NCBI GenBank assembly: GCA_010356995.1
Contig: ML996709.1
Coordinates: 14,606 to 78,605, forward strand
Source: Trichodelitschia bisporula
Lineage: Eukaryota
DNA: 64,000 nucleotides
Direction: 5' to 3'
Positions 35,431 to 58,035 of the stretch are shown here, in pieces. The notes below the pieces were generated by a model. The model saw nothing but the letters and a program-made list of their open reading frames with translations, ran no database searches and was not told the origin of the DNA. Every line of letters begins with the position of its first letter. Within the stretch, counting starts at the first letter, position 1. The translations under genes were made by a program, and so were the position numbers.

Positions 35431-36559
35431 AGCGGCGTTATTGATGGAATAACGGGTCCGGGATGGCCAGACAGCGGCAATAAAATAGAAAAATACAGAT
35501 CATCGATCTATGGGTATATCAATAGATCGATAGCATGCCTAACAAGTGTGCAAACTACTCTGCCATAAATTGTCCAATACCCTACCGGTAGGCTTTACTA
35601 TGGATATCCCCGGGATCCCTCTAATAAAAAAGCGCCGAGACTTGGGAAATACAACACAACCACCCCAATCACGGGCACAAATTTCTTGCTATGCCGCAAA
35701 ACTATCAGCAGTATGCCGCAAGCCAAGGATGCACCAAATTACTCATCTTGCTAAGAGAATTCAATGGTGCATAGTCGACTACCAGTACCTTGAGGAGACT
35801 TGTAGTTCGGTATTTTATTTAGCTGTACAAAGCGCATAATACAATCCGGTGTATCTCTAGCCAGAGTCATATATATTGGTAGCTTAGCATTGTTATATTG
35901 TAGTAAGAGGTTTGTCAATCTGGAGCGGAGAAGCGAACTTTTTTTGGCCGGTCTGTCTTCTACTGCGTGGGGCACATCTTTCAGCCATGCCTCCCTCACA
36001 AATCTAGCCAGTTGTACGCTCAAAGTTTGGACACGTTGCACTACCAAAGCCGGTATCTTGCAGCCAAAGAAAAGATTGCTTGTAGATGGGTTCCTTCAAT
36101 AACTTTTGACTCTACGCAGCTCGTCAGAAAATTCTGGTAGCGTACCACTTATGTACTGCAGATTTTTGTCGCACGACTTCTCGTAACTGGTCTACCAGTG
36201 CCGAAGATGCCAGCGACGGACGCCTGTTGTATAAGAAATACATCCTATGTGCATTCTAACCCCTCCACTCAACCAAGCTCTTTTGAAAACGGAGTTTACG
36301 GAAATAAAGTGCATACCAAAGCAGCCCATTTACACCCAGCCTATCTCACTTCAGGCACTTGCGTCTCCCTACTACCACCAGAGTAAAAACTTGAAACACA
36401 CAATATGCGCAGCTCGGCGAGTTCTACGTTTCAGGCTTGTGATGCGTAGTGGTATGGAGATGCAAGCTTTTAAAGTAAGTTATTCACTGACTTGGCAAAA
36501 TAAAACTGAGCTGTCCGACCTAAGTAAGGTGGATGGTTCAGCCAGCTCAGTATGGTTGG

Positions 36560-36904
36560 GCCTCAGGCACCAAGGCTATGGTCTGCTCAGCTGGCATTGT
36601 AGGGATAAGACCTCTGAGGCAAGCATTAGGGTAGTAAGGCAGGCATTGTTATCAGGTTATAGCAGTTATTATTGTAGTACGGCAGGGAGCACTGCTTTAT
36701 AGCAGGCATAATTAGGTTATAGTAGCAGGCTTAGGCGGATTATATCTTTATCTATCCTACTCAGGAAGAGACTACCTGCGGACCCGCTCTCCCGATTAGG
36801 ACTAGCGCAGCAGTGCTCGCATCCCATAGATAGCTTGCTTCCTCCTACATCTCTTACCAGGCATCATCTCTCTCTCTCATTCACTTATTCTTATGTTCGT
36901 GACA
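36560..36904 (+). repeat. Old, degenerate LTR-like repeat
   Basis: Ends ..GTGACA. Shares TAGGTTATAG, AAGAG..GCGG..GATTAGG..TAGCG, TAGATAGCTTGCT and CATCTCTCTC blocks with the reverse complement of 40515-40720. Confidence 0.45.
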
Positions 36905-37084
36905 TTCATCCACGTTCCGATATGAGCGACGATACGAGACGTCACTCGCAGCTGCGTTTACCCCACCAAGTACCTGTGCAAGCACCAGCGCCCTACGAAA
37001 TATAAGATAATCTGTAAGATTTATACCTAGAGCCTTGAGGATGTACATTCATTAATTCTCTCATTGCATCATACGCCTCCCTGA

Positions 37085-37284
37085 TATTCTTTGTACAGCC
37101 CCTGTTCGTGCCCTGGTAATTGCCCAGGTGCAAATCGGAATCATTAACCAATTAAAGAGCTAGAGTTTAGTCCTGTAAAGAGTTCTTGATTTCTGTAACA
37201 AATCCTAGCACTTTGACTGGTCAGTGACAGGCGATTTGTACCTGGGAAAGTACCTGGACAAGTACCTGAGCCCTACAAGGGATA
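37085..37284. mobile_element. MITE copy 2 (diverged)
   Basis: Ends TATTCTTTGTACAGCC and GCCCTACAAGGGATA; same core ACCAATTAAAG..CTGTAAAG..TTTCTGTAACAAATCCT. Confidence 0.7.
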
Positions 37285-40200
37285 GTAGAAATATTATTGA
37301 GGTCCTGGCAATAATTAGGTGTGGGTAATGATGTATGCGAAATGTGCATAGTAAGTTTGGAGAATATATAGAATAGCCCGGAAGGAGAATTTTGACGACC
37401 TTTTATTAGGGGCAAGTATAAGGAAGAGGGCATTATTCAACTGCTGGTGCGTAGCTGCCTCAGGGCACATTGTCAGTAGGGTAGGAGGTACGTAAGACTA
37501 TTTCGACGCATCATCGCTGAGAAGTAACTAGGAGAAACAGTATAACATCTTAGTCTTATTTGTGTACCTGTCCCTTTGATCATCACCCAATACTAGCACA
37601 ACAACATGGCTATTGTTTTTCATCCTCTTTCGCGCATCTTCGTTTCGGTCATCCCACGTTTCCCTACGTGCATCTCGCAACAACCGCGGAGTCTGTATGA
37701 GTTCAATATCTTTTGGCAGTCAATACCGGCATCTGTAAAAGTCCCCAATTCTTCTGGAAAAGAACTTGAGACTGAGCATGGATAGTGGATATATAATACC
37801 TGCGGTGTGCGTCTGCGGACTCACTTTAACCCCGACATCGGGGTGCCGCGTATATGCTCGCCATTGTCATTGCTTCGTCAGACTGTTGAAAAGGAAGCGA
37901 ACGGCAATTGAATCCTTTAACCTTATCAACTCCCAATGAGCTGCGCTGGCGGATTTCACGCCCCATAATTTCAGTTACTTCATCTGTAATCAGTCGCATT
38001 GCTATATATCTAAAGGAAAGCTCCCGCCTTATCTCATCGTATCCTACAATTCCTGATGTCCTGCATCTACAATATGAAAATAAATTTTGTTTAAAGCCTT
38101 TTATTAATTTGATTGTTGAGCTATGCTGGAGACAGGGCCACCTAGCTTAAAAGAGCTATTCTCCGTGTTAAGCTTTTTGCGCGATCTGAGATTAGCTTTT
38201 TGGGTACTCAAGTTCTCCTTTACGCGGCGTATTGTAAGTCGTATGCAATAACGGTTAAAAGGCGGCAGGGCGGCAAGGCGCGTAGAATGGTTGCTGGTTT
38301 TGCTGCCAACCTCGTAGTCAAATGCCTAACTTCGTTAGCAATTTCACAAGCCCAGTATTTTTAGCCCATTGCTGGAAAGCACAGACTGAGGATACGGATC
38401 AAATTTGAGTACTCACAGATATGTTCCCACGGAAGGCATGTAATATTATCTACGGGGTGCAGTACCCATGTCGCTCTAGGAGCTTCTGATCTGAGCGGTA
38501 GGGCCTGTTTCAGGCAGTACTCGGAAGTGGCTCTCATCTGAGTACCCAAATTTTACCCCGAAATCAGTAAACATGACGCGGCAGCTTTACAAAGTCACTC
38601 TACTAAGACCTCATTACGTCGCACGATAATAGCAAAATCACCAGATGGTAGAAGAATTCGTTGAACTGGTCAAGTATTCCACGGGTCAAGGAGAATTTTG
38701 CGGAACTATAGAGCATTCCAATACGCTCGAAGCCCATGTAACCTTGTAGTTGAAACTCTGAACTTCCATCATTTTCTGAGGTTGGACGTCATGATAAGGG
38801 GGCTTTAGCCATTATTAGCCATTATAGCCATACCTAGCCACAAAATCTCAGGCCGCGATGCCGCTATAACTCATAGATCCATGCGGATGAAGACTGCCAG
38901 CTTACTCGACTCGTTAGAAGAATTGTAATAAACTGAATTTCTTTCCGTACCTATGTCGCATTGTGTGGGTTGTCCCTTGTTCTGCGGGCGTGCCCTCTGG
39001 CGTCCTCATTGCTGATATACCAACTAGAGAGCAGAATCTCATACAGAACTGTTCCGTTAAGAATTCTTACTCTCTAATTGGCCAGCCAGCTACTGGCGGA
39101 CCACTACGGATGCAAGTGAGGAGGCTAGTAAGGACTCCCGCAATACGAGGGATATATATAGTTTTAGGGGTTGGGGTGTTCTGGCTTCCTAAGTCTTTAG
39201 CTCAAATCCCTGCTCCGGACCCAAGCTATGCAACAAATCTTCTCTGCCAGTCCTTGGGCACGCCACGCTAGAATAACTGCTGGTACATGTCCCAGAATTC
39301 ACGGTCTGATAAACTAAGGCCGGCTTTGCAGTACACACGTTTAGGCCATAAAACGCAGCCATATCGTATCCATACGCATTAACTTTCCACTCTCTACCCC
39401 TACTCTACCCCATATATTTCCATCTTTAATTTTTGTTGGCTAAATCCATACCCTGTCATCAAATTTGTGCCACATAAACGGTGCATAGTCTTCTAATTTA
39501 CCTTGAACCCTTCTCAGGTAAAAATATGCGCCCATGTGGGTTAGTTTTACATGAGACACGTCACCACATATTCTACTAAGGACACGGGCTATCGGGTTAA
39601 GATACTGGCATTAGCTCTTAATCTTTGGGTTAGATAGTTTGTATCTAGTTCGTCCTATCAGGACTGCAGATACTATATACTCCAGCACCACAGATATTTA
39701 GATAATATGTCGCCCCGCAGGCTTAGACATTAGCATTAGGTATTCGTCCTTACATTGCGGTCATTACAGATTACATAGGAAAACTCCTGAATAGCTTAAA
39801 ATCATTAGAATTTACACGACGCCTCGTAAAAAGAAAATTAGAAGCCTGCTGCTGTCAGGATCGCATATATCGTGCAAAAGGAAGACTTCTTTTCTCATGA
39901 AGACAGCGCGAACGTTAATAAACATATTATTATGGAAGAGGTTTAACCATGGTCACTGAAACTATTCTTATGGTGCCGAGGAAGCTTGCGACCATATTGT
40001 TGCCAGTTATTGTATTGCATGTGAGCGGAATATCAAACTGATGTTCAAGGTTATTTGCTCGCTGATGTTCAAGTCTGTCAGGGGACAGCTTATTCAAATT
40101 TTGCCAACCAGATTACTAGCTTGCCACTTCACTAAACCGGATGCGGGCGCCGTTGGGATTATACGGCCACATGCTCTGATGCACATATTGATCAATCACA

Positions 40201-40514: not shown

Positions 40515-40963
40515 CTATGAGAGAGATGAAAATGAAGTAGTCGTGAAGTTGTAGAGCAAGCTATCTACGTAGAAGGGGATTTGTGTGTGTAGAAGCGCCA
40601 AGACCCGAACACGCTACGCCTAATCAGGAAACCGTCCCGCGGGTCGGCTCTTATGGGAAGGTACAAAGTCCAGACCGTCTGGCCTTAATGCCTGAGGCAC
40701 CTATAACCTAGAGCTGGTTAACTATCTGAAGCCCCTAGGTCTAATATACCCCCTTAGCTAGTGTCATGGGAGGATACCATCTCTCCCATGACAAGATATA
40801 AAGGTAATAGATTAAGCTATCTACTAAGAACTAGCTTAAAGGTGAATGCTAAGATATTACGTAATACGTGAGTAGCCTATGCTCTAGCGCTATAAGTAGC
40901 CAGTACAACAGTTCCATAAACCACGCTAGTCCTAAATGGGAACCGGCCCGCTCAGGTCGGTTT
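40515..40963 (-). repeat. Old TpA-rich LTR-like repeat interrupted by the Gypsy element (appears to continue at 47075-47131)
   Basis: Inverted similarity to 36560-36904 on both sides of the Gypsy insertion; many TA dinucleotides (RIP-like). Confidence 0.45.
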
Positions 40964-41171
40964 TGTCACGGTATGACACCCGGTTTCTGTTGCTCCATGG
41001 GCTCGCACCATCACCGGGTTTGTATGGGGCTTGGCGCTGTGCCAAGCCGCCACACTCACACTCGTACACCAGGCCTACTTACCCGCAGTCCCTGACACCT
41101 TTACTCCGTAGCTTTACAATCTACGTCTTACCCACATCTTGATCGTGCATGCGTGATTGTTGACGGTGACA
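40964..41171 (+). repeat. 5' LTR (208 bp)
   Basis: TGTCACGG..GGTGACA; identical by eye to the 3' LTR. Confidence 0.97.
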
Positions 41172-41172
41172 T

Positions 41173-41183
41173 ATTGTAAAGCT
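41173..41183 (+). promoter_or_regulatory. Self-priming primer binding site (Tf1/sushi type)
   Basis: ATTGTAAAGCT is the exact reverse complement of LTR positions 41110-41120 (AGCTTTACAAT). Confidence 0.8.
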
Positions 41184-41530
41184 CCCTGTTTCAAATCCTC
41201 AAAACAAACCTACGGAAGCTTCTCCCTCAAAAGAGATCACTTTCGCAGGCCCCTGAGAAAACAGAACTTTCGGAGAAACAGCTTTGCTGAATCGCGGAAG
41301 AGTCTGGAAACGTGCGAGCGTTTGCTACTAGCAATCGAACTCTGTGGCTGCCTATTTCACCAGTCCACTTCTCTGTCACTGCATAACTTTGCAAACACCA
41401 CACCACGATCGCGGAGACTGCAAATCTTCTCCTCAATCGCCTACCTTCCTCCATCCACCGAACCACTCTACACGCCTAGAGAACTAGTGGAGAGGAACCT
41501 CTGTCAATTCAGATCTTACGATACACCGCC

Positions 41531-43075
41531 ATGGACACCGATATGCCTGACGCTGCCGCTACGGCAGCGCCCCAGGGTGGCGACGGAAACCGTCCGGTCA
41601 ACACTGGCGAGCAGGCTGTAGTCATCCCCTCGATCGCCATTACCAAAGACCAGGAAGAAACTGTCATCATCCTCACCGACGAGAGGGGGTCGCTCGAAGC
41701 CAAACACGGGTCGGCCTTACGGACGTCGGTGCACGCAAACCCTACGCGGTGGTTCCAGGCAATCGTGAGCACGTCTCAGCGTGAGGCGGAGCTACTCGAG
41801 AAAGCTAAGGCGACAAAGAGGAGTTACGACGATGCGATCATCCAGCTGAATCGGTTGACGGTCAAGAACGACGATCTTGACGTCACTTGCGACGAACACG
41901 CCACCAAGCTTTCCTCGAAGAAGCGGGAGTTGGAGATTGCCCTTGCGGACGTAGCGCGTTTGCGGAAACAGCGTGATGACTTCCGCGCCAAAGTCTCTGC
42001 GGCTGAGGAAGAGGTCAAGATGTTGAAGGAGGCGAGTAAGAAGGCAAGCGAGCAATCGTTTGCAGACAATCGTCACCTCCAGCCGGAATACCTTGACTTC
42101 ATGTCGGATGAGGATCGTCTCACTCCGGATATGCCGCTTCGCCCAAAGCCGCGTGGTAGATCTCGGTCCCCGGGTCTCCGCGCCCCGGTAATGAGGCAGC
42201 GGTCGAGGACCCGCAGCAGCCAGAGCTTGAACGTGCGTACATACGTACACAACTATCCTGACGCGCCAAAGTTCTCTGGCACCGACAAGGAGGATAACTA
42301 TCTTCAGTGGAAGATGCAGGTGCAGTCCAAATGGAACATGACCGGAGACGCATACGAATCCACCTGGGCTCGGATCAACTACCTTCGTGATCGCTGCAAG
42401 GGTGCCGCTTTCCAACTGATTTGCGACCGTGCGGATCCTTACGGGAAGAATCCGTACACATCGGTCGATCAGGTTTGGGCGGATCTAGACAAGTATTTTA
42501 AGCCCGAGAACGAGGAGATGACGGCAAGGAACAAGGTTGCGGAAGCGAGCTTCGCGATGCAGCCTGGCGAAGATATCAATGACTTCGTCTTGCGCTTCAC
42601 TGAGACAATACGCCCCCTGGATTATTCCGATGCCGGGAAGGCTCATCTGTTCTACACAAACTTAGTGAGAGCGTTGAGGTTGAAGCTGTCTGACGGACAC
42701 GACCTGCCACCGTTCGTAGATCTCCTCATCCGCGCCAAAAATCTGTTTACGCAGCTCGAGGGCGTGTATGGAAAGGGCAAGGTGGGAATCACCGAGACAC
42801 AGAGGCCGAAGAAGGGTGAGGATGAGAAGCCGAAAGGGAATAGACAGGCGCAGGGCTCGGGAGGATCTACAACTCCGAACCTGCGTATCCCGCACCGTCC
42901 GACCGCCTTATTCGGAGCCCTAAAGGACCAGAATCGCTGTATCCGTTGCGGAGAGGTGGGCCACGAGCATACCGAGAAGGAGAAGTGCCCTCTGTTCGGG
43001 AAAGCCGCGAAGACGAATGCGGAGATGACCGTAATCGTAGCCAGCACCGACGAAGTCAAGCCGTCGGGAAACTAA
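41531..43075 (+). CDS. gag: Retrotransposon Gag (coiled coil, capsid-like region, zinc knuckle)
   Basis: 514-aa ORF; PDAPKFSG; zinc knuckle CIRCGEVGHEHTEKEKC (CX2CX4HX7C). Confidence 0.9.
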   Translation: MDTDMPDAAATAAPQGGDGNRPVNTGEQAVVIPSIAITKDQEETVIILTDERGSLEAKHGSALRTSVHANPTRWFQAIVSTSQREAELLEKAKATKRSYDDAIIQLNRLTVKNDDLDVTCDEHATKLSSKKRELEIALADVARLRKQRDDFRAKVSAAEEEVKMLKEASKKASEQSFADNRHLQPEYLDFMSDEDRLTPDMPLRPKPRGRSRSPGLRAPVMRQRSRTRSSQSLNVRTYVHNYPDAPKFSGTDKEDNYLQWKMQVQSKWNMTGDAYESTWARINYLRDRCKGAAFQLICDRADPYGKNPYTSVDQVWADLDKYFKPENEEMTARNKVAEASFAMQPGEDINDFVLRFTETIRPLDYSDAGKAHLFYTNLVRALRLKLSDGHDLPPFVDLLIRAKNLFTQLEGVYGKGKVGITETQRPKKGEDEKPKGNRQAQGSGGSTTPNLRIPHRPTALFGALKDQNRCIRCGEVGHEHTEKEKCPLFGKAAKTNAEMTVIVASTDEVKPSGN

Positions 43076-43106
43076 AGGCTCCAGGGGGAAGACCTTCCCT
43101 GGGGCT
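43066..43106 (+). promoter_or_regulatory. -1 ribosomal frameshift signal
   Basis: Slippery heptamer G GGA AAC at 43066-43072, directly before the gag TAA, followed by the stem GCTCCAGG..CCTGGGGC. Pol is in the -1 frame. Confidence 0.8.
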
Positions 43107-44649
43107 GAATAGGAACGAGGCAATGAGCACAGTGCGGAAACGCAACCTCAGTGTCCCATCAGAACCACATCGCAAGCCATCGATCGAGGACCTCTGTGAG
43201 GAGGACGTCCTGGCGTTCGGAACAACATTGCAGCCTTGCGCGTTGACAGGGATGATGTGTGAATGCTGTGCTGCTGATTGGGCGAGTAAAAGTACCGATC
43301 CCCTGGGGACGGGTACTTTGCCACAGCCAATTAAAAGAGACTTGAAGATCCAGCCCCTGGGTGGGAGCTTCGCGACACAATGGGAGCTAGAAGCGACCAT
43401 CTGGCCCAATTACCAGGCGAAGCAAGTAAAATGCCTAGTGGATTCCGGAGCTGGAGTGCGTACATTGATCAGTAGACGCCTTGCTGAAGATTTCAAGTTG
43501 AAACCCGCGCGTCTGGGGAGGAAGATCCGACTCCAGCTCGTTGATGGCAGAGTTGTGGAAGAGGAGGCGGAGACAGTGACCCTCCGGATCCGATTCGGTA
43601 CAGGCGATGGCCATACCGAAGAGATAACGGGTTACCTAGCTTCGCTGAGTCAGTGGGACGTGCTCCTAGGCATGCCATGGCTGGACGACCACAACCCAGA
43701 CATGAAGCCGCAGCCGAGGCGACTAACGTTCAATTCTGACTTCTGTCTCAAGAACTGCTGTGCGGGAGGGAAACCGGTGATCGTACAAGGCCGGTCCGTA
43801 AGGCACCAACCTGAGAAGCTCGAGGACATCCGCGAGGTATGCGCAGAAGCATTCCTGGAGCTCGCTCGGGACCCCGATATCGAAATACTGGCGTTGTCAT
43901 TCAAGCAACTAGAAGCATGGGCAAAGACGGGCGAGCTGGATAAGCCTGACTTCTGTTATGACGTATCAGCCGTGTCACAAGCAGACATCGACCGATACTT
44001 TGAAAAGCGCGCTAAGGGCCTGCTGAGCATAGAGGAGCTGAAGAAGCGCGTCCCTGAATGCCTACACGAATTCGTCGATCGTTTCGATCCGAAGGAAGCC
44101 GATAAGCTGCCGCCACACCGGGAGGGTGTGGACCACGTCATTGAGTTAGTGCCCGGTGCCCAACCTCCGCATCGGAAGATCTATGGGACGTCACCCGAGA
44201 AGGCCCTCGTCATCAAGACCTACATCGAGGACATGCTGAAGAAGAGGTTTATCAGACCTAGCAAATCGAGCTTCGCCTCCCCGCTCCACATCGCGAAGAA
44301 ACCGGACGGAGGAGTGCGCGTCTGCGTGGATTACAGAGAGTTAAATGCACTCACCATAAAGGACAGAAACTGCCCACCGCGGTTGCAGGAGACGATGCTG
44401 CGCTTACGTCGGATGAAGTGGTTCACCAAGCTAGACATCATCCACGCGTTCAATGAGATCAGGGTAAAACAGGGCTGTGAGCACATGACGGCTTTCCTAA
44501 CAAGGTACGGGCTCTTCGAGTACCTGGTGATGCCGTTCGGGTTGTGCAATTCCCCCGGAACCTTCCAGAGGTTCATCAACAGCGTTCTATTCGAGTATCT
44601 CGATAAGTTCGCCTCATGCTACAGCGATGACAGCCGAAACGAATTATGA
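43073..44649 (+). pseudogene. pol: Pol 5' part: aspartic protease and truncated reverse transcriptase
   Basis: CLVDSGA; RVCVDYRELN; FTKLDI; YLVMPFGLCNSPGTFQ; ends five residues after YSDD. Confidence 0.9.
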
Positions 44650-46828
44650 GATTTATGATAAAGAACTGCTCGCAATCGTCAAGGCGTTCGACACCTGGCA
44701 TTCGGAGCTCGGAAACGCGGGGCAGAAGGACCCTGTGAAGGTTATCAGCGACCACAAGAACCTGAAGTACTTCATGGAGACGAAGAAACTCACGCCGAGA
44801 CAGTTCCGTTGGGCTGAATTCTTAAGCCAGTTCAACTTCAAGATCACGTACGAGCCGGGAGAAACGAACAAAGCCGATCCACTGACTCGTCGGGAGCAAG
44901 ACCTGCCGGTAGGGGAGGACGATCCACGGCTCCAGGTACTCCATAGGACAATTTTGAAAGCCGAGAATGTCGAGCCAGGGATGGCTGTCGCGGCAATTGT
45001 TGCACATGAGCTTATCGACGACGTAATAATGGGGCTCCCGGAGATCATCGCCAGCATATACGCTATGGCAGAAGCGGAAGAGCGGCAAATTAATGATCCG
45101 GATCTTCACTCCGATGAGAGTTCGGGCGACGAGGACGAACCTGAATTGCTTGACCCCGAAGAGCTTCTCGAGGAAATCAGTAAGGCGTGGCCAGAAGGGT
45201 CACCAGATAGCCACGAGGATCCGGTCTTCGCCGCAATTGTCGCCGCGAAGCAGAGCGACATGAGGAGGATTCCTCTCTCGCTAATCCGCAGTGGCATTCG
45301 TGTTGAGCTAAGTCGGTGTTCCATTCAAGACAGGATACTGATGCACGGAAAACGCGTCTACGTCCCTGACGTGGGAGACCTGCGGGCGAAAGTCATTCGG
45401 ATGTTCCATGACACGAAAGCCTCGGGCCACGCCGGCCGATCAACCACGTTCGCCAGAGTATGTGAGGGATACTTCTGGCCGGGAATGTCAGCCACCGTCG
45501 CACGCTATGTCAAAGCCTGTCGGGGTTGCTCGCTCTCCCGTACGTCGAGGGAGGGGAAGCACGGTCTTCTCCAGCCACTACCTATCCCTGACAAGTACTG
45601 GACGGATATCAGTATGGACTTCGTCACAGAGCTTCCCCCGTGCCACGCATACGGCAGGATCTTTAGGCACATCCTGGTCATTGTCGACAGACTGTCGAAG
45701 AGACGCCGGTTCATCGCGATGGACTCGCTCGAAGCGGAGGCCGTAGCGACAGCGTACATCGAACACGTCTGGAGATCGGAAGGGTTCCCAAAGTCGATCG
45801 TTTCCGACCGAGGGTCCCAGTTCACGTCACACTTCTGGCGTCGCCTCTGCGAGCGCACCGGAACAAAGCCGAAGCTGTCAACAGCATTCCACCCGGAGAC
45901 CGACGGACAGACGGAACGTGCAAACGCAGGTCTAAAGCAGTATTTACGCTGCTTCACCAATTACCTACAGAGTGATTGGGTAGATCTACTGCCGTTCGCC
46001 GAGTTTGAGGCCAATGCGGCACCTAGCGAGTCGACAGGCATTGCGCCGTTCCTGGCCACCAAGGGATACATTCCGAACGCGGGGTTGCAACCAGAATTTC
46101 CCCCTGTACCGCGTGAACCTGCGCACGTGAAGCTCGAAGTTGATAAAGCGGATAAGCTAGCGCAGCGCATCGGCTGCCTCCAGAGCATGTTAAAGGACAA
46201 CCTGGCGTGGAGTCAGGCTAGGCAGAAGGAGTTTGCCGACAGGAAGCGTCTCCCTGCCCCGGAGCTGATGCCTGGGGATTACGTATTCCTGGACTCCCGA
46301 AACATCAAGACAGAACGCCCGAGCCGTTCCCTCGATCACAAACGCATGGGACCCTTCAAGGTCTTGCAAGTAGTCGATGGAAGCGCCTGCGAGTTAGAGC
46401 TCCCAGACACAATGAAGATCCACCCTGTGTTCCACAACTGGCTCTTAGAGCTAGCAGACGCGGAACCAATCACCGGGCAGCGACAGAAGACCCCGGAACC
46501 AATTGTCACGGAAGATGGAGATCCCGAATGGATCGTTCAGGAGATTGCGGACAGTCGGTGGGCTCCTCGGGAGGCTGATCCGTCCGACACTCGTCGCGGG
46601 AAGCACCGCCGAAAGCTACTACAGTACAAGATCAAGTACTCCGGCTTCCCTGATTGGAACAAGAACCCTCAATGGCAGCCGTATTGGGACACAGTCGGAT
46701 GCCGGGGCTTGCTCGAAGCTTATCACAGTGCCAATCCGACAAAGGCCGGTCCACACCCGAGCTTTGGCAACAAGGAAAGTTGGGAGGAGATTACCAATGA
46801 GATGTATCGTCTCTCCAATAACAGCTGA
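44627..46828 (+). CDS. pol: Pol 3' part: partial RNase H, integrase, chromodomain
   Basis: AETNYEIYDKELLAIV; SDHKNL; HHCC motif (HDT..GH..CRGC); SMDFV/VSDRG/TERAN catalytic triad; GPFKV; chromodomain WIVQEIADSR..YKIKYSGF. Confidence 0.9.
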   Translation: MTAETNYEIYDKELLAIVKAFDTWHSELGNAGQKDPVKVISDHKNLKYFMETKKLTPRQFRWAEFLSQFNFKITYEPGETNKADPLTRREQDLPVGEDDPRLQVLHRTILKAENVEPGMAVAAIVAHELIDDVIMGLPEIIASIYAMAEAEERQINDPDLHSDESSGDEDEPELLDPEELLEEISKAWPEGSPDSHEDPVFAAIVAAKQSDMRRIPLSLIRSGIRVELSRCSIQDRILMHGKRVYVPDVGDLRAKVIRMFHDTKASGHAGRSTTFARVCEGYFWPGMSATVARYVKACRGCSLSRTSREGKHGLLQPLPIPDKYWTDISMDFVTELPPCHAYGRIFRHILVIVDRLSKRRRFIAMDSLEAEAVATAYIEHVWRSEGFPKSIVSDRGSQFTSHFWRRLCERTGTKPKLSTAFHPETDGQTERANAGLKQYLRCFTNYLQSDWVDLLPFAEFEANAAPSESTGIAPFLATKGYIPNAGLQPEFPPVPREPAHVKLEVDKADKLAQRIGCLQSMLKDNLAWSQARQKEFADRKRLPAPELMPGDYVFLDSRNIKTERPSRSLDHKRMGPFKVLQVVDGSACELELPDTMKIHPVFHNWLLELADAEPITGQRQKTPEPIVTEDGDPEWIVQEIADSRWAPREADPSDTRRGKHRRKLLQYKIKYSGFPDWNKNPQWQPYWDTVGCRGLLEAYHSANPTKAGPHPSFGNKESWEEITNEMYRLSNNS

Positions 46829-46861
46829 GGGGGGGGGCATTCTTTCGAAGGGGGGGGGTCG

Positions 46862-47069
46862 TGTCACGGTATGACACCCGGTTTCTGTTGCTCCATGGGC
46901 TCGCACCATCACCGGGTTTGTATGGGGCTTGGCGCTGTGCCAAGCCGCCACACTCACACTCGTACACCAGGCCTACTTACCCGCAGTCCCTGACACCTTT
47001 ACTCCGTAGCTTTACAATCTACGTCTTACCCACATCTTGATCGTGCATGCGTGATTGTTGACGGTGACA
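46862..47069 (+). repeat. 3' LTR (208 bp)
   Basis: Identical to the 5' LTR; preceded by a G-rich polypurine tract. Confidence 0.97.
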
Positions 47070-47131
47070 GGTTTTGCCTCATAGATGCCTTACTAACAGA
47101 ACCACCGAAGCTATAGCCCCTATGGCTGATA

Positions 47132-47534
47132 AGTGGCACCAACAGCCAGGTACGGAACTCGGACCTCTAGGTCTTGTCTGTCTGTCAGTCATATTGACTA
47201 TGTTCAATAGGGCAACCATTACTGCTCCCGCGACTATGGCTCCGGCGCGGCCAACTCCAACTCGTACCATTATTCAACACGTAAGTCAATGTTCCACACT
47301 TCTATGTCGCCGATCTGTCAGCCAGGGATCGACTACATCTTTCCAGCAAGAGTAGAAACCGAGCTAACAAATATCTCTCTCAGGAATGGCTAGTACTACT
47401 ACTCCAACCCCAATGGCAGCACCTACTACAACGACGGAGCTGGCAGACCCACCTACACTGCGCCCGGCGGTGATAGCTCGTCCTCCGGGGGGAACACCGG
47501 CAGCAGCGGTAGCAGCGGTACTTCCGGCAAGTAG
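47132..47534 (+). pseudogene. Small Tyr/Ser/Asn/Gly-rich fungal protein, 5'-truncated and disrupted
   Basis: Spliced reading SGTNSQ | GNHYCSRDYGSGAANSNSYHYS | NG*YYYSNPNGSTYYNDGAGRPTYTAPGG..GK*. Introns 47150-47210 and 47281-47383; the second has a GCTAAC branch site. Apparent 1-bp loss near 47275 and a TAG at 47391-47393. Confidence 0.75.
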
Positions 47535-48163
47535 TAGGCTGGTCGAACAGATCCAACAGTCTGGGCGATAGGCCGTTGGTGGTGGGTGGTGGTTTTCCGT
47601 GGGTAAAGTCGGGCTGCTAGCATGTAGTCGGAGCTTGATGGGTCTCCGCTTGTCTACCGTAGAAGCAGAACCCTATTGCGACTCCCACCACCAAAGATGG
47701 AAGGAAAGCTCATGTACATGTTTGCCGCTGACAGGTCGCTACGGCGGGGCAATGTCCAAGTAGTCACGACCTCATTGACCAGCGACAAGATAAAGAGTGC
47801 GGGGCGACTTTACTCTGTAGGCAGGTTGCAACATGATGTAGGGAAGTGCTCACCGTGACTGCCGCTTACTGATTGGCCGCGAATTTCAGCCTTTCCGCCT
47901 TCTCCATCAAGTCCCCTCGCTCCTTCACTGCAGATGGAACTGTCAAGTATGCAGTTACCGTTCTTGACATTGTAGAATCAGCAATTTCCATGTGGACCTT
48001 AAAGAGTCAACCTGTCCCGGAGAAAACTTCAGAACCAAGCATCCGTGTATCATCCATCCGTCCAAGATATACACTCACAAAGTCTTCATACTCTCCATAT
48101 CTCACCCATTTTTCCAAGTACCTTTCCATTTTCTCACCCACTTCATCAGACTTCACCGCAATC

Positions 48164-50743
48164 ATGGCTCCTCCGGCCGTTTCCATCCTCAACCACTTCA
48201 CAGCGCCCAAGCTGCAGATGCTCGAAACGCGGCGCGCCGCCTTCCAGACCATCCACAACAAAGTCGTCGCCGAGGCAAAGGCCATGCCCAACCGGGCCGA
48301 AGCCGTCAGGCACCCCTACGAAGCGTACTCCTCCGCCCCGCTACTCCGACGCAACATCGAGACCTTCCAGAACCTCAAAAACCTTCTCCTACAGGCCACC
48401 GCCGACCCGTCCATCTCGAAGACCCAGCTTGACGAATGGTGGGATGCGTTGACGCGGGAGTTCGAGAACCAGGAACGACGTTACGAGTATGCCGTACTGT
48501 TCAGAAAACTGGTCAATGAGTGGGTTGAGACATCGGGGCATGGCCGCCTTGCCTCGCCTTCTGGGGAAGACTTCGAACCGGTTGGCCGCAAGGAGATGCA
48601 CGAGCAGCGCGCGCAGTGGGAGAAGTATGCCATTACGGAAAAGAAGGTGGACCGCGAGGCCATCCGCACCTACCTCGAAGACCTCTTTGGAGACGCCAAA
48701 GGGCAGGCGCTGATGAAGTTGCGGGAAAAGACGGGTATGGGGGAAAGCAAGGATAAGAAGAAGGACTTCAAGCTAAAGCCACTCTCTGTGGAGGATGTCG
48801 AGCTCGCCATCGCCGGAGTGTTGCAGTCGGATATCTTCACCGGCCAGAAGCGGCAGGAACTGGTCAAACTGCAGATTAAAGACGCCGTCCTGGCCGAGAT
48901 TGCGGACGTGGTCAACATGGACCTGACTTCCCTGGACAGCTGGCAGTGGGAACCGAATCCGATGACTGTCCAGATGCGGCGGCAGCTCAATGGCATATAT
49001 CGTGCGTTCTACGACGAGGAGATCCATGTGGCCATCCTTCTGTACTACATCGGGTGCGAATGGGGCTCTCGCTTCAATGAAGCATTCAAAGCATTCTACA
49101 AAGCTGGATGGATTCATACCTTCACTACCCTCGATGGCCGCACAAAAAAGCGCTGGGAAAAATTCATCGGCAAGACGCCATATGAGAAAGCTCTGACCTG
49201 CTTGCGGGAGACCACGTTCGGCAGGACCTACTTCATGGTGCAGATGCCGAAATCTCTCGGGAAGAATGCCCCCACCTACGACGACGACGATGAAGATTAG
49301 GATGATTTTGGTTGCCGCTCCGACCACCACAAGTCATCGAAGAAGCAGCGGCCAGTCAACATCAAAGAGGCCATGCATCGCCTAGCCACGACGGAGATGC
49401 TCGTCAACAGCAAGTTGCATGGTCAGTTCACCATGTGGGCAACCGACTTCAAGTGGTTCGGGCCGAGTATGTCGCACGAAACTGTATGCACGGTGCTCGA
49501 GTTCCTCGGTGTCTCCAAAAAGTGGCTGGCATTCTTCAAAAGGTTCCTCTCGGCGGATATCGTCTTTGAGCAAGATGGGCCCAACGCGCAGCCTCAGACA
49601 CGAAAGTGCGGGCTTCCGCTGAGCCATGTGCTCAGCGACACGATGAGCGAGGCTGTGCTCTTCTACCTGGACTATGCTATCAACAAGTGGACATACGGCT
49701 CGTTCCTCTACCGCTTCCACGACGTGTGGTTCTGGGGGCAGGAGAGCAAATGCATTGAGGCATGGAAGACGATCACTGAGTTTTCCAAACTAATGGGCCT
49801 CGAACTCAACGAGAGCAAGACGGGCTGCGTCCACATCGTTGACAAGGTCGCAGACGGCTTGGACAAGAAAGGTGCACGCGCACTTCCAGCCGGACTCCCG
49901 CAGGGTGATATCGTCTGGGGTCTCCTGCGCCTCGATGGGGTGAGCGGGCGCTGGCTCATCGACACCAAGAAGGTGGACGAGCACGTTGCGGAGCTTGGGC
50001 TCCAGCTCAAGGCTTGTCGCAGTGTCTTTGCCTGGATTCAGGCATGGAATGGCTATTTCCACCACTTCTTCCGCACCAACTTTGGACGGCCGGCAGAGTG
50101 CTTCGGCCAGGAGCATGTCCGGATGGTCATCAAGATGTTCCAGTATGTTCATAGCGAGCTCTTCGGCGACGAGGGTGTGACATCGCATCTGCGTGCTATG
50201 ATCGGAGAGCGCTCTGGTATGCGTGACCTCCCGGAGGGATTCTTCCAGTTCCCCGTCAACAGAGGCGGCCTGCAGCTTTGCAATCCTTTCTTGGCGCTAT
50301 TCGCCGTCCTCGAGAACACGAGCAAAAACCCAGCGGCCAAGTTGGAGGAGGCACTTGACGAGGCCAAGGCAAAGTACAAAGGGCTGAGCAATGCGTACGA
50401 GATAGGTGAAGTTCCCGCCACTCATGTCGGCTTCCTGAAGGAGGATGAGCTGTTCATAAGTCTCGAGAAGTACATGAGCTACGCGGAAGACACTAGCGAG
50501 GAGTTGTCTGTGGCTTGTTGGAAGCTCACGAAGGTTTCTGAGGAGGAGATGATCAAGATGTCGCCAGAACTTATGAGGTACATGGACAACACCCCGGACC
50601 ATCCATACTGGCGCTGGGCTCTGGAACTGTATGGGCCGGAAGTGATAGAGAGGTTCGGCGGTCTGCAGATGGGCGAGCGTGAACTTCTGCCGCTTTGGCT
50701 TGTGGCCGCGCTTCGCAGCGAGAGGACGCGCTGGCAAGGTTAG
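48164..50743 (+). pseudogene. rvt: Cellular reverse-transcriptase-related gene (rvt), interrupted by one in-frame TAG
   Basis: Coiled-coil N-terminus; RYEYAVLFRKLVNEW; VGRKEMHEQRAQWE; EIADV; RRQLNGIYRAFYDEE; TDFKWFGPS; GLPLSHVLSD; LYRFHDVWFWG; MGLELNESKTG; WGLLRLD; SVFAWIQAWN; GGLQLCNPF. The two ORFs are in the same frame (offset 1500 nt), separated by TAG 49298-49300. Confidence 0.88.
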
Positions 50744-51080
50744 GTTGGCGGTGCTTCAGAATGTCAGGTATGAGTACATACTTGATTGAACCACAGGAGG
50801 TGGAGCTACACTAGACAGTATACCCAAATCACAACTCTTTTCATTTGCGCTAGCTGTTGTCGAGCCTTGATATGTTTTTGAAACGCCGAGGAGGGTGGCA
50901 GGACGACAGGTGATGTCGTCATCGGGGAGATGGAGATCCAAACCCGCATGCTGTCATCGGGACCGGCGAGAGGAGCAGCCAAGATAGAAAAAGATTGCAA
51001 AACCGGGGTCGACGTCTATCTGCGTGATACTCCATACATGCCCAACATCTGCACAATAACCTACCGATACGGGTATCCAA

Positions 51081-52288
51081 CTACAACTTCGCCTCCGGCG
51101 GCTGCTTCAGCCTGACCACGCCCTCCTGCACGCAGCTCGCAATCAACTTGCCCTCGCGCGTCCACATGCGCTGATACACCAAACCTCGGCCATCTCCCGC
51201 CCACGGCGTCTCCATCTCAGTAAAGATCCACTCATCAGCGCGGAACCCACGCGGATCGTGAAAGTAAATGGTATGGTCAAGCGACACCATCATGCTGACC
51301 TCAGGCCGCACCTTGCGCAGTCGGTTCTGCACATACTCCTCCATGCCCTGCCTGCGCTGCTCGTCGTCGCCGTCGCGCAGCTGCGCGAGCACGTCTTCGT
51401 CGACCACCGTCTCCGAATTCTCCGTGTTCTTGGCCCACGGCGGGGTCGTGGTTGGAGAAGGAGTAGTGCGTACTGATGGCGCGGTTGTCTTCGCGGGCGC
51501 GGGAATGCGCCATAGCTTGTGCACCCGCGACACGGTCCCGATGAAGTAGCTGTCCGACATGTAGGCCATCGCAGCGAGATGCGCTTGGTGGCCGCCGGCG
51601 GGGGAAATGCGGCCGCGCGCCTTGATCCACTGGCGCGTCTTCTTGGTGTGCGGGTGCGGGGAGTCGTCTGAGGCGATGTTAAGCTCGGCGCGCTGGATAG
51701 CTCGCAAAGCCGAGTTCGACTTACTATTCAGAATATCGATGCGCTGCGACTGAAACGGGCCGTCTACGCCCTGTGGCAGACGCAGATCCCCAAAGTCCGT
51801 CTCGACGGGCTCGGGCACGTACGGCATGTTGACCTCGTGCTGCACTAGGAGCTTCCCGCCGGCGCCCTCACGGACGAAGCTCATCGTCGTCGTGAAGATG
51901 GCCTTACCGCGCTGGCGCGCCTGCACGGTGCGCGTCGCGAATGACCGGCCCTGCCGTACGTTCTCGACGTGGTATATGACGGGAATGTCTGCGTTGCCCG
52001 CTAGCACGAAGTAGCAGTGCATGCTGTGGATCCAGAAGTCTTCGGGGACGGTTTTCTGCGCTGCCACGAGGCATTGGGCGATCACGGCGCCGCCGTAGAC
52101 GCCGCGCGCGCCGGGTGGGTGCCATAGTGGCCGGGTGTTGGTGTAGAGGTTCTGCGGGGTTGGTACGCGGCGCAAGTCGGGGCAATGGGACTTACTGGAT
52201 CAATGGGGTCGAGATACGTCAGCTCGAGGACGTTTTCGATCTCCGCCTTGGACGGGTCGATAGGAGGGGGGCGAATGAGCGTCGCCAT
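51081..52288 (-). CDS. TES1: Acyl-CoA thioesterase II (TesB/Tes1/ACOT8)
   Basis: LWHPPGARGVYGGAVIAQ, HSMHCYFVLAG, MAYMSD, MMVSLDHTIYFH and SCVQEG motifs; two introns. Confidence 0.93.
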
Positions 52289-53186
52289 GGTGTTGCGACG
52301 AGACGTGTTCAGCGGGGATGTTGACGGCGATGCTAACGGCGATAACGGAGTGGGAAGTCGAAGTGCACTCGGGTGCGAGAGAGTGGAGAAGCAGGACGAT
52401 TTCAGGAGATCATATGTCAGGAGATTCGCAAGTCGTGTCGTTGACCGCGGCATCACATCTCTTTTTTGGGCAGCGACGCGGGCGATTGATTACCTTGCCA
52501 ATGATCATATCCTGGGACCGGGTTACGTCGGTCAACTCGGGTGGTGGCTCAAGCCCATGTTCGGTTTCCCATCCGCAGTCCAGGCCGAGGTCCAACTCTC
52601 CGCCAAACAAACCATACGCCTCCCGACGACCTCCTCTCCAGCGCCCGCTTCACTTTTTGCGGCGTACTGGCCGTGAAGTGAACCTAGCAATCAATGGTTA
52701 CTAATCGATGTGGTCGACGGCTTGGTGAGCTGAATTGGCAAAAGTCTGGCAGTTATCGCGATATTGCGACATGCATGCATCTTCCTCGACGGCGGTATAA
52801 CCACCGCGGCATCTGCTCCTCATCATGTACCGTAATTCTGCTAACCCAATCTAGACTCAGCCTTGCGTTAATATGACTCTGTCAGGCTGTCGGGCTGTCA
52901 GCGTCAGACACCATCGCGATGGGGCTCAGATGCCCCTACCTAGAGCAACAGCGGCAGTCACCACTCCGTGGTTTCTACTAGAAGCAGGCATCGTCGACCA
53001 TCTGCTCCTGCACCCAGTATGCCAAAGCCAGCCCACCCAGTACTTGACCGCTCTTGTTTTTGGACTCTCCTTTCTCTTCCTCATCCCGCCTATCCTGTTC
53101 ACTTCCCATCCTCACAACAGAACCTTTGCCGAACCTTTTCTTGCATCAAGACCTGAGTTTCAATTCAATCTCCAGCTTTCCCAACA

Positions 53187-54716
53187 ATGTCCTCATTTCC
53201 TACTGTCGTGATTGTGCACGATGCCTGGCTTACCCCGGAGCACTACGCCACACTGATCGACGAACTCACCTCGGATGGGTTCCCCGTCGCCTGTCCGCAC
53301 CTCCCGACTGGCGGCGAGAACGCTGGCTTCAACGACGACTGCTCGTTCATTCATTCACTGGTGTTTGACCTTGCCTGCGAAGGGCATCCCATCCTGATCC
53401 TCGCCCACGGCTATGGCGCCTTTGTCGCTACCGAAGTCGCCCATGACCTCAGCTGGAAGAACGAAGCGAAGAAGGGCCAACAACGCCTCGCCGGCGGCGT
53501 AGTGGGCTTGATCTTTCTCGCCTCCTTCCTGCCGAGCTACGGCCACAAGTGGGTTGATAGTTTTGGCGGAGAGTGGCCCGACTTTATTCCACTCAAGGTT
53601 GGTAGCTAGCAGTTGGAATCCGACACCCCGCTCCATCGCCGTCAAATTCGTGATGCTGACTGTCGTAACCAGGATGGCAAGGTGACCCTCGTCCACCCCG
53701 AAGCTCTCTTTAATAGCCTTGGGAACATGCAGCGGATGCACTGGATCACCCATCTGGGCCCCTTCAACGCCAAAGTGGGCGACATTGTCATCACGGCCCC
53801 TGTTCCGGCATGGATCCAAACCCAAACCACCTACGTGGTCTGCGAGCAAGATCTGCTCTGCGACAAGGATCTCGCGCTGAAGAACCTCGACAATGCGCGG
53901 CGGGTCAACCCGACGGCCAAGATCGACACCGAAGTTCTGCAGCTCGACCACAACCCTTTCTTGGCCGACTCCAAGGCCATCAGCCACATCGTAACTGCCG
54001 CAGCAGTCAAGGCCAAGGACTTGATTGGCCCGGATACCTCTGGCGACACTGATGGGGCGAATGATGCTTGTCCTGCTTCGAACTGGGGCGCTCCGACCAA
54101 GGACTCCGTGCTGGCTCAGCCGAAATGCCGTGGGCATGTGTGCGATCGCGTCCCCGAACAGCAGCCAAAGTCCCCTAGGCGCGTTGGGCAGGCCTTCGAC
54201 AGCCGTGACACGCATATTCCTCTCAGTGCCGATGCCGACGACCAAAAGCCAGCTGGCGACGCTGATGTTGGCAAAGCCACCGATGGTGCCGACGACCCGA
54301 AAGACGTATCGCTCCCTCGCCGCGTCAAGACCGAACCCGCGCCCACACGTAAGACGAAGCCCGAGAAGGAGGAAATCTCAGTCCAGTCACAAGAGTACGT
54401 GGAGTCCGTCTCCGACGACGACGGCAAGAAGTGTCCCTGCAAAGACGGTCAGTGCCAGGGCTGCGATTGTGAAGCTGAACGCATTCCGGGTTGCAAGTGC
54501 CGCAAGGCCGACGATGGCGAAGGCGAGGAAGATGTTGAGGGTGAGGGCCGCGACCCGTATCGGAGTTGGGACTCTGGCCTTGCTGATTATGGTGATGACT
54601 CAGAAAAGAACTCCGTGAGCACTACGGGCCGGAGTGAGACTGCTAAGTCGGATCCTGGTACCCTGGGGCGCTATACGGGCGGTGCAGCGCTGGATCGTTC
54701 GGCTACGGCTTTGTGA
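53187..54716 (+). CDS. Alpha/beta-hydrolase-fold protein lacking the canonical Ser, with a long acidic, Cys-rich tail
   Basis: VIVHDAW; ILAHGYGA; GLIFLASF; TTYVVCEQD; DHNPFL. Intron about 53598-53672. Confidence 0.7.
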
Positions 54717-55150
54717 TGGCTCGATCGCCAATTGTTGAGGAGGCTGGATGTCCAACACAACCCGTATCGGGTTCTCTTTGGGCGGGAAGTTGCTCTAAAC
54801 AGACTTTTCTGCTGTATTCCATAGTGCTTCTGAGTGGGTTGAGTGGTGTTCTTGCTACATGGCAGTTTAAGTGCACTCGATTGAATCCTGTTCTTTCTCG
54901 CTTTCTTTGTTTTGAGCTTGAACTTGAAGCTGTTGTACCAACGTACCTGGAAATCTCTTATCAGTGACGTACCTCTTCCCCTCCATATTTGCTCTTGCCT
55001 CGGCTTCCTGAGATCCTGCCGTGCCTGCATCAGATACTCATTGTCCCTTCCCTAGCCTTTCAAGCTAACTAAGCAACCAAAAGTCATCTCAAGTCGCCAA
55101 CATCATCACCACAACTACAGCGACATCACTACATCACGTCCACAGAAGCC

Positions 55151-56250
55151 ATGAGTGATTCCTTCGTCTCCGCCCCTTCGACAGAATCTCAATTCGAAAG
55201 GCCTCCGCACTGGCTTCCGGCTCTCAAACAAACCTGGCCGGAACCAGCTCAACACCGACCCTCCATCCTTCGCTGGCTCCGCTGCTACGCCTTCAACATC
55301 CCACTACTCGTCGCCACGGGACTCCTCGGGATCCAACTGCGGCGGTATCTCCTCCGCACGCTCTTCCACTCTCCTCCATTTTAACATCCTCACTCACCTT
55401 CAACTCGTCCCGCTAATTTGCTCCTAGCATCGTAAACCCTCGAGACCGCCCCGTCCCTCGATCCTACATAGACGGCTCCATCCCCACCCTCTCCTACCCG
55501 CTTTACCCCGAGGGCGTACCCATGTGGGCTGAAGCTCTCTTCATTGTCCTCACAACCGGCTTCGTGTATGGGATAATGGCGCTATTCATGCGCTCCTTCT
55601 GGGACCTCAACAACGCCATCATAGGTACCCTGACAGCGGTCGTAGTCGGCGGCATCTTCCAGCTCAATGTAAAGTGGTTAATCGGTGGGCTGCGCCCCAA
55701 CTTCCTCAGCATCTGCAATCCGGCCATACCGCCCCCTGGGGCATCGCATAAGCTGGCGCCGCGGACAGAGTGCGCTTTCCATATCTATTGTCCGCTGTGC
55801 ATATACTGATGAAGCAGCATGTACATGGTCTCCGACCTCTGTCACCCAACCAACCAGGACATGTACGTCGACGCCCAGCAATCCTTCCCCTCGGGGCACA
55901 CGACCACGGCCTTTGCATCCATGCTTTTCCTCAGCATGTACTTACATGGCAAGCTGGGGAGCAGGTGGGCGACACCGGCTGGACCGAGTCGGCCCGCTGC
56001 CGCACAGCCGCCATTTTGGTACTGGGTGGTGCTGAGTGTGCCACTGCTAGCGGCTTGTCTGATCGCGGGTGCTATGTGGATTAGTCAGTGGCATCATTGG
56101 TGGGAGCTGTTGGCCGGGGGGGTCATTGGGGCTTTGGCCGGGTACATGGTGTATCGAGGTATGTATCAAAGGGGCATCGATGGGGTGCGGGGCGTGCCGA
56201 TTGTGCCGCGGGCGGCGGGCGGGGGAAAGGCGGCTAGACCAGTGGATTGA
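55151..56250 (+). CDS. PAP2-family lipid phosphate phosphatase
   Basis: KWLIGGLRPNF, SFPSGH and QWHHWWE motifs; transmembrane segments; introns 55345-55427 and 55770-55817. Confidence 0.85.
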
Positions 56251-56384
56251 GGGTGGATCGAAGGTGCGTTACTGGAGCGGGCCCTAAGTTGGAGTTTTCA
56301 TCGATGCGTTTGATTCCTAGCTACTCCCGTCCTCCTTGCAGGGCTACTACAAATAGAGAGAATCACCAATCCTCCAACAACTAC

Positions 56385-56924
56385 CTAGCCGCTTGCCGCC
56401 CAGACGGGAGCCTTCATCTGCTGTCCAGCCGGCATCGCACACTCGCCGTTCTTGCAAACCACATCGGTCGGGTTGACAGTAAGGCGCGCGAAGGTGGTGG
56501 CGCTGTCGAAGGGGGGATCGCCGAGGGAGGGGTCCTTGAACGAATGCTTGATCTCGAGCGCGAAGGTGGAGGTGCTGTTGAACTTGGAGAGGTAGAACGA
56601 GAAGGCGGGGTTGCTGCAGCGGACCTGGCGGGACGTTAGTTCTATTTTGGTGGGGGAAAGGGAAGGATCGAAGGGTCATCATGCACGTACCCAGTTGCTC
56701 GGGAAGCCGCTCAGACGAGTCCAAGCGGCGCCGCAGGAGGTCGTTTCGTCCGCCACGGGCTCCGAGTCGTGCACGGAGAACATGAGGGTTGTCTGCGTGG
56801 TGTTGGTCCGCACGGCGCTCGAGAGCGTGGTGATGGCGTAGCCGGTCGAGGTGAAGACGGCGCGGCTGGAGGCCAGAGGGAGGAGGGTGAGGAGGAGGGT
56901 GAGGAGGAATTGGATTGAGTACAT
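56385..56924 (-). CDS. Small secreted 4-Cys protein (possibly Alt a 1-like fold)
   Basis: Signal peptide; intron 56625-56690 joins ..TTSCGAAW..FPSNW | VRCSNPAFSF..LEIKHSFKDP..VVCKNGEC..AASG*. Confidence 0.65.
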
Positions 56925-58035
56925 GGTTGCTTGGTTGGGGATTTGGGTTGGGGAATTGATTTTCGGTGTGAGATGGAGTTGGTTTGGGTTGGAGTGAGGT
57001 TGTTCTGTTGTTGGGGCCGGGTTTTATATCGCTGGTGATGTCTTGGAGCAGCGACGTCGGGCAGCACAGCGAGGGTAGGAACGAGCGACGTGGGTGGGAA
57101 GCGGCGAGAGCCAAGGTGGAAAGAGTGAAGCACAACGGACGAGAACAGACAATAGCAACAGAACCTTACACAGTAGGACCGTCCTCGTACTTACATATTG
57201 CCCTCGAGAAGACCGTTGCGGCTCCCTCTCCGCGACGGATCATGCATGTACACAAGCCCGGCGGCTCGCCCATTCACCCTCCCGCCTGCCCAACCAAGCG
57301 CCTGTGGCCTTGGTGATCGGTGGTAGGGAGCATCGGAAGGCAGCCTTGTGCTCTTCAGATGGATACGGGTTCCAATTGCGGTTGATGATGCACCTGCAAT
57401 CTGGAAGGGGGGGTGCTGTCGTTGGTTGCGCCGCATTCGCGATTTTGGACGTCGTCTGGCATCGACGCCTGATTGGAGGCGGGTGATGCCGAGCGAATAT
57501 CCGACACGACCACTCACCTCTACGTGTGTCACGGAGAGAAGAGATGGATGAGAGGCGACTTTGCTATCACCAATAGACCACGGCAGATCTCATGATATTT
57601 GTTGCTTACGTCCGCAATCCGTGGTTCCATTGATTCTCTAGCCCAACATTCCTATGGCGCCTAGTTCGATGCTCGTTTCTTCCTCCGGCTCGGCTCTTCC
57701 TTCGGTGTTTCGGCTTCAACATGGCGTAGTCCATTCCTCCTCCACGTGTTGGGTATAGCTTTTGATGGGAGCGGTGTGCGTCATCTCGAAGCGCCTCAGC
57801 CGAGGCGGATTCATTCTCGAAGGTCTTTGCCAAGTGTACGTACGGTACCGCATGCCGGCGACACCTCACGTGTTCCCCAATGTTGCACCACAGCAATGGA
57901 AAAAGGATGACATTATGTTTCACGCCATTCAAGCGACCCGCCCGCCATCCAATCCCGCCAGCCAGATACAACCCCTCGACGTTATTCACCATCGTCCCAT
58001 GCCATCCGCGCTATGTCCTGCTATGAAAAGGGTTA

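Follow-up and report, generated by a model that had tools for sequence, protein, structure and literature searches.

We surveyed a 64,000-nucleotide stretch of the Trichodelitschia bisporula genome (contig ML996709.1, positions 14,606 to 78,605 of the forward strand; hereafter the window, to which all coordinates refer) and found in it a nearly full-length gene of the rvt class that carries two small lesions. The gene occupies positions 48164-50743 on the forward strand, the orientation of all gene features given below unless stated. Its frame of 859 codons and a terminal stop is interrupted by one internal stop codon only, and one of the two adjacent aspartates of its catalytic motif C is missing. 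We consider the locus to be a young loss-of-function allele or unitary pseudogene of the rvt class that is masked in the public annotation, a reading to which we assign a probability of roughly 0.7. rvt genes are an enigmatic class of host genes related to reverse transcriptases (RTs) and have a known patchy distribution. The fungal members are said to be the rvt class of Gladyshev and Arkhipova from 2011, with RVT of Neurospora crassa as the studied representative. According to three sources, rvt is a single-copy host gene with non-templated polymerization activity (PMC3520738, PMC9226505, PMC10680173). The last of these, a 2023 meeting report, describes template-free polymerization by rvt proteins, purifying selection, and a need for intact catalytic residues in stress alleviation (PMC10680173).

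The family to which the gene belongs was established by protein and profile searches. Using the read-through protein, with X at the stop, as the query (P0001), we retrieved 98 proteins at E ≤ 0.001, nearly all of them 850-950 amino acids (aa) long and from Pezizomycotina. All 98 are rvt-like, labeled as hypothetical or RT-domain proteins, rather than RTs of long interspersed nuclear elements (LINEs) or long terminal repeat (LTR) elements. The top match was the gene's own deposited model (P0002); the next homologue shares only 44-46% identity. Only one T. bisporula protein is present among the 98 matches, and the gene is the single annotated rvt of this dothideomycete. Against the PADLOC profiles, the frame matched RT_UG37 with E = 1.5e-59 (199.8 bits; aa 13-711 against profile positions 10-658 of 778), and its homology to the profile includes the N-terminal region. 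Intact homologues score 236-238 bits against RT_UG37. All other PADLOC RT profiles gave E ≥ 2e-4, with Drt9 and UG17 at about 2-3e-4. UG37 corresponds to rvt elements according to Mestre et al. 2022 (PMC9226505); the rvt identity put forward in a preliminary description, made from the sequence letters, is therefore supported by a test.

Similarity to other RTs was weak. Pfam RVT_1 matched the C-terminal half of the frame with E = 0.002 (18.2 bits, below the 29.6-bit cut-off), while the Pfam scan gave no match in the N-terminal half and no protease, RNase H, integrase, or endonuclease domain anywhere in the open reading frame (ORF). NCBIfam models showed only a weak similarity to group II intron RTs (E = 2e-4), far below the cut-off. 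A phmmer search of the single protein against the PDB returned nothing significant; only the family profile reached a solved RT chain, 9ioa_A. A look-up of the homologue P0003 in the ESM Atlas placed it near clusters of fungal RT-domain proteins and, third nearest (score 0.97), a Chloroflexota-rich bacterial cluster with members of ~824 aa, which fits the presence of the rvt family in both domains. An LTR or LINE RT identity was rejected, given the sub-threshold RVT_1 match, the lack of accessory domains, and the rvt-like nature of the 98 homologues. On this sequence evidence, the gene is a member of the rvt class.

The preliminary description had reported about 860 codons broken only by a TAG at 49298-49300, and the translation agrees. 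Two stop-to-stop ORFs, 47873-49300 and 49301-50743, share one frame, and there are zero frameshifts across 2.58 kb. The TAG is codon 379 and falls within the acidic run PTYDDDDED*DDFGC. It lies in an acidic linker of variable length, in the loop 2a region of the family that separates motif A from the motif 1-2 block; the neighboring alignment columns (540-560) are variable and acidic among homologues. This stretch is part of the ~146 residues (aa 281-426) that separate the MRRQLNGxYR and xDFKWFGPS blocks. The 378 codons upstream of the TAG (48164-49297) encode the rvt N-terminal domain, which matches the UG37 profile from residue 13, and the MRRQLNGxYR block (48974-49003), in which R272, R273, and G277 are invariant and which probably represents RT motifs 1-2. 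The first in-frame ATG downstream of the TAG (M404, 49373-49375) is a hypothetical restart codon.

Downstream of the TAG, most of the conserved blocks of the polymerase are kept. TDFKWFGPS at 49442-49468, the predicted motif A, retains the catalytic aspartate (D428), and S427T is its sole change from the family block SDFKWFGPS. The motif B equivalent, RKCGLPLSHVLSD, at 49601-49639, has R480, G483, and D492 invariant and aligns to RKVGIPQGTSIS of 9ioa_A. The motif D equivalent, GLELNESKTG at 49796-49825, also aligns to this structure; G545 is invariant, and L546, N549, K552, and T553 are conserved in at least 90% of sequences.

Motif C is where the second lesion lies. At 49709-49738 the gene encodes YRFHD-VWFWG, with the codons CAC GAC GTG where the family has HDD, a 3-nucleotide in-frame loss. 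The catalytic loop first described as RFHD-VWFW at 49712-49735 is present exactly there (R517-W524), and the proposal that fungal rvt proteins usually carry xHDD, with one GAC codon missing here, held. Among 97 homologues (the gene's own public model being left out), motif C is HDD in 96 and RDG in one (P0097); none has the single-aspartate HD, which occurs in the T. bisporula gene alone. In an alignment of 81 sequences, the absent column is aspartate in 80 of the 80 other full-length members. The clade mates P0040, P0056, and P0066 read RFHDDVWFWG, from which T. bisporula differs by exactly one GAC, so the loss of one GAC accounts exactly for its motif C. Loss of a GAC from a tandem GAC-GAC is a typical product of slippage. 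The family profile aligned to 9ioa_A ("RNA-dependent DNA polymerase") with E = 9.7e-8, placing RlhDD over RYADD, between the aligned motifs B and D. The family HDD is thereby matched to ADD within the YADD of this structure, so the missing residue is part of the YxDD box. RT-type polymerases hold the catalytic metal with the two motif-C aspartates. Of the catalytic residues, the T. bisporula gene thus keeps the motif A aspartate, and its motif C Asp-Asp is not intact.

One homologue departs from the family at the same site. P0097, labeled Phyllosticta citribraziliensis, is a full-length, uninterrupted rvt-family protein of 883 aa in which RCRDG replaces RFHDD and SFDRLKA replaces SDFKWFGP. It deviates at 61 of 155 conserved columns, and its terminal branch (1.61) is the longest. 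P0097 may represent an rvt relative that is non-catalytic by nature, or else a further decaying copy that gene modeling has rescued.

Both lesions were present in sequencing reads. We compared Logan contigs from four of the five runs that contain the stretch with positions 47900-51000. Both DNA runs, X1 and X2, derive from one sample and may be the data from which the assembly was built; X3 and X4 were generated in another study from another sample, and that they are RNA is only a software guess, no RNA run being on record. Record 4 of X2 covers the whole of 47900-51000 at a depth of 211 and record 2 of X1 covers 48211-51000 at a depth of 415, each matching letter for letter. The TAG is crossed by X3 record 7 (48715-49612) and X4 record 11 (49191-49404), and motif C is crossed, unchanged, by X3 record 8 (49611-50730). 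Over the region, all four runs showed no other letters, no insertions or deletions, and no joints. The TAG, claimed earlier from the assembly letters, is therefore genuine in independent read sets, and no run carries a sense codon in its place or a GAC-GAC in motif C. Contig depth in X3 is about 4-9 over the rvt gene versus 290 from 50847 on, and the DNA runs are flat. This pattern is what an RNA library would give, a hint only, as contig depth cannot rank genes.

The condition of the remaining frame suggests that the gene evolved under constraint for a long time and was inactivated very recently. Of all random substitutions in the frame, we calculated that 3.9% would yield a stop codon, so a single stop is what about 25 neutral substitutions (~1%; 95% upper bound, ~4.7%) would be expected to produce. 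The GC content of third codon positions (GC3) is 0.742 versus 0.566 overall, and the codon-position structure is intact. The gene deviates at 17 of 157 columns conserved at ≥90% and keeps the other 140, and the deviations are spread over both halves (8 of 58 columns in the N-terminal half and 9 of 99 in the C-terminal half). The median over the 81 sequences is 6, and the intact clade mates deviate at 13-23. We rejected the idea that the divergence is excessive and betrays a long period of relaxed constraint, since the intact clade mates deviate equally often. The terminal branch of T. bisporula is 1.14 substitutions per site versus a median of 0.19, and the root-to-tip distance is 1.26 versus 1.03, a modest rise, as would be expected when a single species stands for its whole order. 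The grouping with P0040, P0056, and P0066 has weak support at the inner node (0.39), rising to 0.88 one node out. Given an intact frame, a coding-like GC3, and conservation typical of the clade, the loss is likely to be recent.

Taken together, the locus would be an rvt host gene caught shortly after its inactivation by two independent small lesions. The TAG at codon 379 would truncate the protein ahead of the entire palm, and a slippage-type loss of GAC would have removed one of the two motif-C aspartates. Either lesion alone should abolish non-templated, protein-primed polymerization, and with it the aid under stress, as rvt activity reportedly needs intact catalytic residues (PMC10680173). 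We would thus expect polymerization by T. bisporula rvt to be lost because of these lesions. The remainder of the frame, which is intact, would not yet have had the time to decay further, and the locus appears still to give a low-abundance, unspliced transcript.

Several observations weigh against this interpretation. An 859-codon frame with one stop and one in-frame deletion also fits a gene that is altered and still used. P0097, an intact member of the family, likewise lacks HDD, and non-catalytic relatives may exist. The long terminal branch could reflect an older functional divergence, though sparse taxon sampling explains most of it. The nearest available homologue is distant (44-46% identity), and the lesions may be either fixed or polymorphic in the species. 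Lastly, if X3 and X4 are DNA, the evidence on transcription and splicing shrinks to sequence signals and conservation.

The preliminary description had left the choice between a recent pseudogene and a read-through or split allele; we favor the pseudogene, and read-through or splitting found no positive support. If the locus were still used, it would yield either an 859-aa single-aspartate protein by UAG read-through, or a 378-aa N-terminal module together with a 456-aa piece starting at M404, acting in multimerization or binding rather than polymerization. We regard this as unlikely. The frame is otherwise intact over its full length and the deletion is in frame, but recency accounts equally well for the intact frame. 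The motif A aspartate and motifs B and D are kept, as are 140 of the 157 conserved columns, with deviations similar in the two halves. On the other hand, the TAG falls between the motif 1-2 block and the palm, and neither piece would then be a complete polymerase domain. The contigs of the second sample cover both halves, and P0097, which lacks both HDD and the motif A block, suggests that catalytically dead relatives may persist. A family precedent for splitting at the loop was not apparent among the five shorter homologues returned: P0100, the one inspected (on the longest contig), starts at motif B and not at the loop. The GAT-TAG-GAT codon context is not known to promote read-through. In addition, PMC10680173 reports that rvt function requires intact catalytic residues.

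A stronger form of this alternative, that T. bisporula expresses a natural separation-of-function rvt (through read-through, or as 378-aa and 456-aa pieces, with a single-aspartate motif C), is in our estimate a long shot. If true, the scaffold for multimerization or priming would serve some purpose apart from polymerization, and this rvt, together with P0097, would indicate that rvt biology has a non-catalytic branch. A functional locus would also offer a natural catalytic-site and split variant for dissecting the non-polymerase parts of RVT.

It is highly improbable that the public gene model is correct as deposited. This model, the 808-aa P0002 of NCBI (T. bisporula, order Phaeotrichales), is identical to the frame we describe except for two in-frame gaps, which it treats as introns and whose splicing would give a stop-free protein. 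The first, 57 nucleotides at 48305-48361 (GTCAGG...ATCGAG; aa 48-66), contains no stop. The second, 96 nucleotides at 49238-49333 (GTGCAG...CACAAG; aa 359-390), bypasses the TAG. Both segments run from GT to AG and are multiples of three in length, as an in-frame reading of the deposited model would have it. However, both lack a CTRAY branch site and a consensus 5' splice site and have an exon-like GC content (0.65 and 0.54, respectively). The first segment aligns with residues in all 29 aligned homologues. The second encodes Q360 and P362, which are conserved at ≥90%, and Y372, which is invariant (30 of 30). There is no GTRNGY site within 49100-49300 and no GT between the Y372 codon and the TAG, and any intron that removed the TAG would therefore also delete conserved coding sequence. 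X3 record 7 and X4 record 11 cross the 96-nucleotide segment colinearly, without a joint; the X3 and X4 contigs cover nothing in 48205-48379, which holds the 57-nucleotide segment. The spliced product would, moreover, still miss one motif-C aspartate. We judge the 96-nucleotide "intron" to be an artifact of a gene caller dodging the stop, and the 57-nucleotide one is probably an artifact as well.

The deposited 808-aa protein hence owes its existence to an in-frame "intron" that bridges the TAG and removes conserved residues, and annotation-based surveys of rvt presence, absence, or selection would score the T. bisporula copy as intact. The preliminary description overlooked this unsupported, TAG-hiding intron of the public model, as well as the young LTR element upstream that is described below. 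Two other deposited rvt homologues, P0007 (1410 aa) and P0021 (1138 aa, with PF09351), are far above the family length; they are probably models fused with adjacent genes, and automatic models of the rvt family need checking.

An assembly or sequencing error, with a sense codon and GAC-GAC as the true sequence, is almost certainly not the explanation, because independent read sets reproduce both lesions: the separate Logan assemblies of X1 and X2 and those of X3 and X4 agree, with 0 differences at both sites, and nothing was found in support of an error, even if X1 and X2 are perhaps the assembly's source and not fully independent.

As a young loss-of-function allele or unitary pseudogene, the locus has a wider bearing. 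The patchy distribution of rvt implies frequent loss, and the T. bisporula locus would show one such loss cleanly, while it is still under way. As rvt is already known to be patchy, one lineage-specific loss is unsurprising.

We also examined the surroundings of the gene. The claim that no LTR, gag, or endonuclease is attached stands for the ORF itself but not for its neighborhood, as a complete Ty3/Gypsy LTR retrotransposon lies at 40964-47069 (+), with its 3' end 1.09 kb upstream of the rvt ATG. Its two LTRs (40964-41171 and 46862-47069) are 208 bp long, identical, and bounded by TGTCAC...GTGACA. The element is flanked on both sides by the 5-bp target duplication GGTTT (40959-47074 overall) and has a G-rich tract before the 3' LTR. 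Within it are three stop-to-stop ORFs: 41480-43075; 42844-44649, with an aspartyl protease and RVT_1 (2.3e-18); and 44531-46828, with RNase H, integrase, and a Tf2-type SH3 domain. The alternating frames of these ORFs suggest at least one frame change within pol, and the element is apparently very young. Because it is bounded by its own LTRs and by the target duplication, the rvt gene is excluded from it. No repeats flank the rvt ORF within 42000-57000, and the gene is not within a mobile element.

Farther upstream, a gene-poor block at 32000-40000 has a low GC content (0.44-0.45 versus 0.53-0.60 elsewhere). It contains degenerate direct repeats, for example 35264-35351 and 37140-37227, and GTACCT-rich tandem units of 12 nucleotides at 35372-35430. 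Its TpA/ApT ratio reaches 0.9-1.05 and its (CpA+TpG)/(ApC+GpT) ratio is 1.15-1.23, leaving the signature of repeat-induced point mutation ambiguous. The block is probably old transposon debris beside the young LTR element. Downstream of rvt lies a convergent acyl-CoA thioesterase gene at 51081-52199 (-), which matches Pfam 4HBT_3C (5e-37). The thioesterase contig in X3, at a depth of 290, begins at 50847, about 100 nucleotides past the rvt stop codon. No tRNA and no Rfam family was found in the 64-kb window.

Compared with known systems, the T. bisporula gene is most like other fungal rvt genes. It falls into the same 850-950-aa length class, groups with homologues from Dothideomycetes, and shares the blocks MRRQLNGKYR, SDFKWFGPS, RKxGIPMSHxLSD, YRFHDDLWFWG, and GLELNEEKTG and the C-terminal ...RSEKVRWQG. 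As in those genes, a long, variable acidic segment precedes motif A, and retroelement domains are absent. It differs in having a TAG at codon 379 and HD in place of HDD, the sole such case among the 98 proteins retrieved.

Likeness to bacterial rvt (the RT_UG37 group of the UG/Abi RTs) extends over the N-terminal domain and the RT core, both of which match the profile. In contrast, the last ~120 profile positions, which make up the C-terminal domain, are unmatched, and the host of the T. bisporula gene is eukaryotic. A scan of bacterial genome contigs with patterns derived from the fungal proteins gave 37 matches, none confirmed; these patterns are specific to fungi, so the scan is uninformative on bacterial rvt.

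The palm motifs B, C, and D also align with those of RT-like polymerases of defense and Abi systems (Drt9, UG17, and AbiP2; 9ioa_A). This similarity is weak and local (~85 residues), however, and the N- and C-terminal domains are unlike. We know of no defense context for fungal rvt genes. In PMC9226505, protein-primed, untemplated synthesis is attributed to both AbiK and rvt.

Finally, the rvt gene has an RT palm in common with the neighboring Ty3/Gypsy element, which lies on the same strand 1.09 kb away. The two differ in other respects: the element combines a strong RVT_1 match (2.3e-18) with a protease, RNase H, integrase, and 208-bp LTRs, whereas the rvt ORF has none of these and matches RVT_1 with an E of only 0.002.

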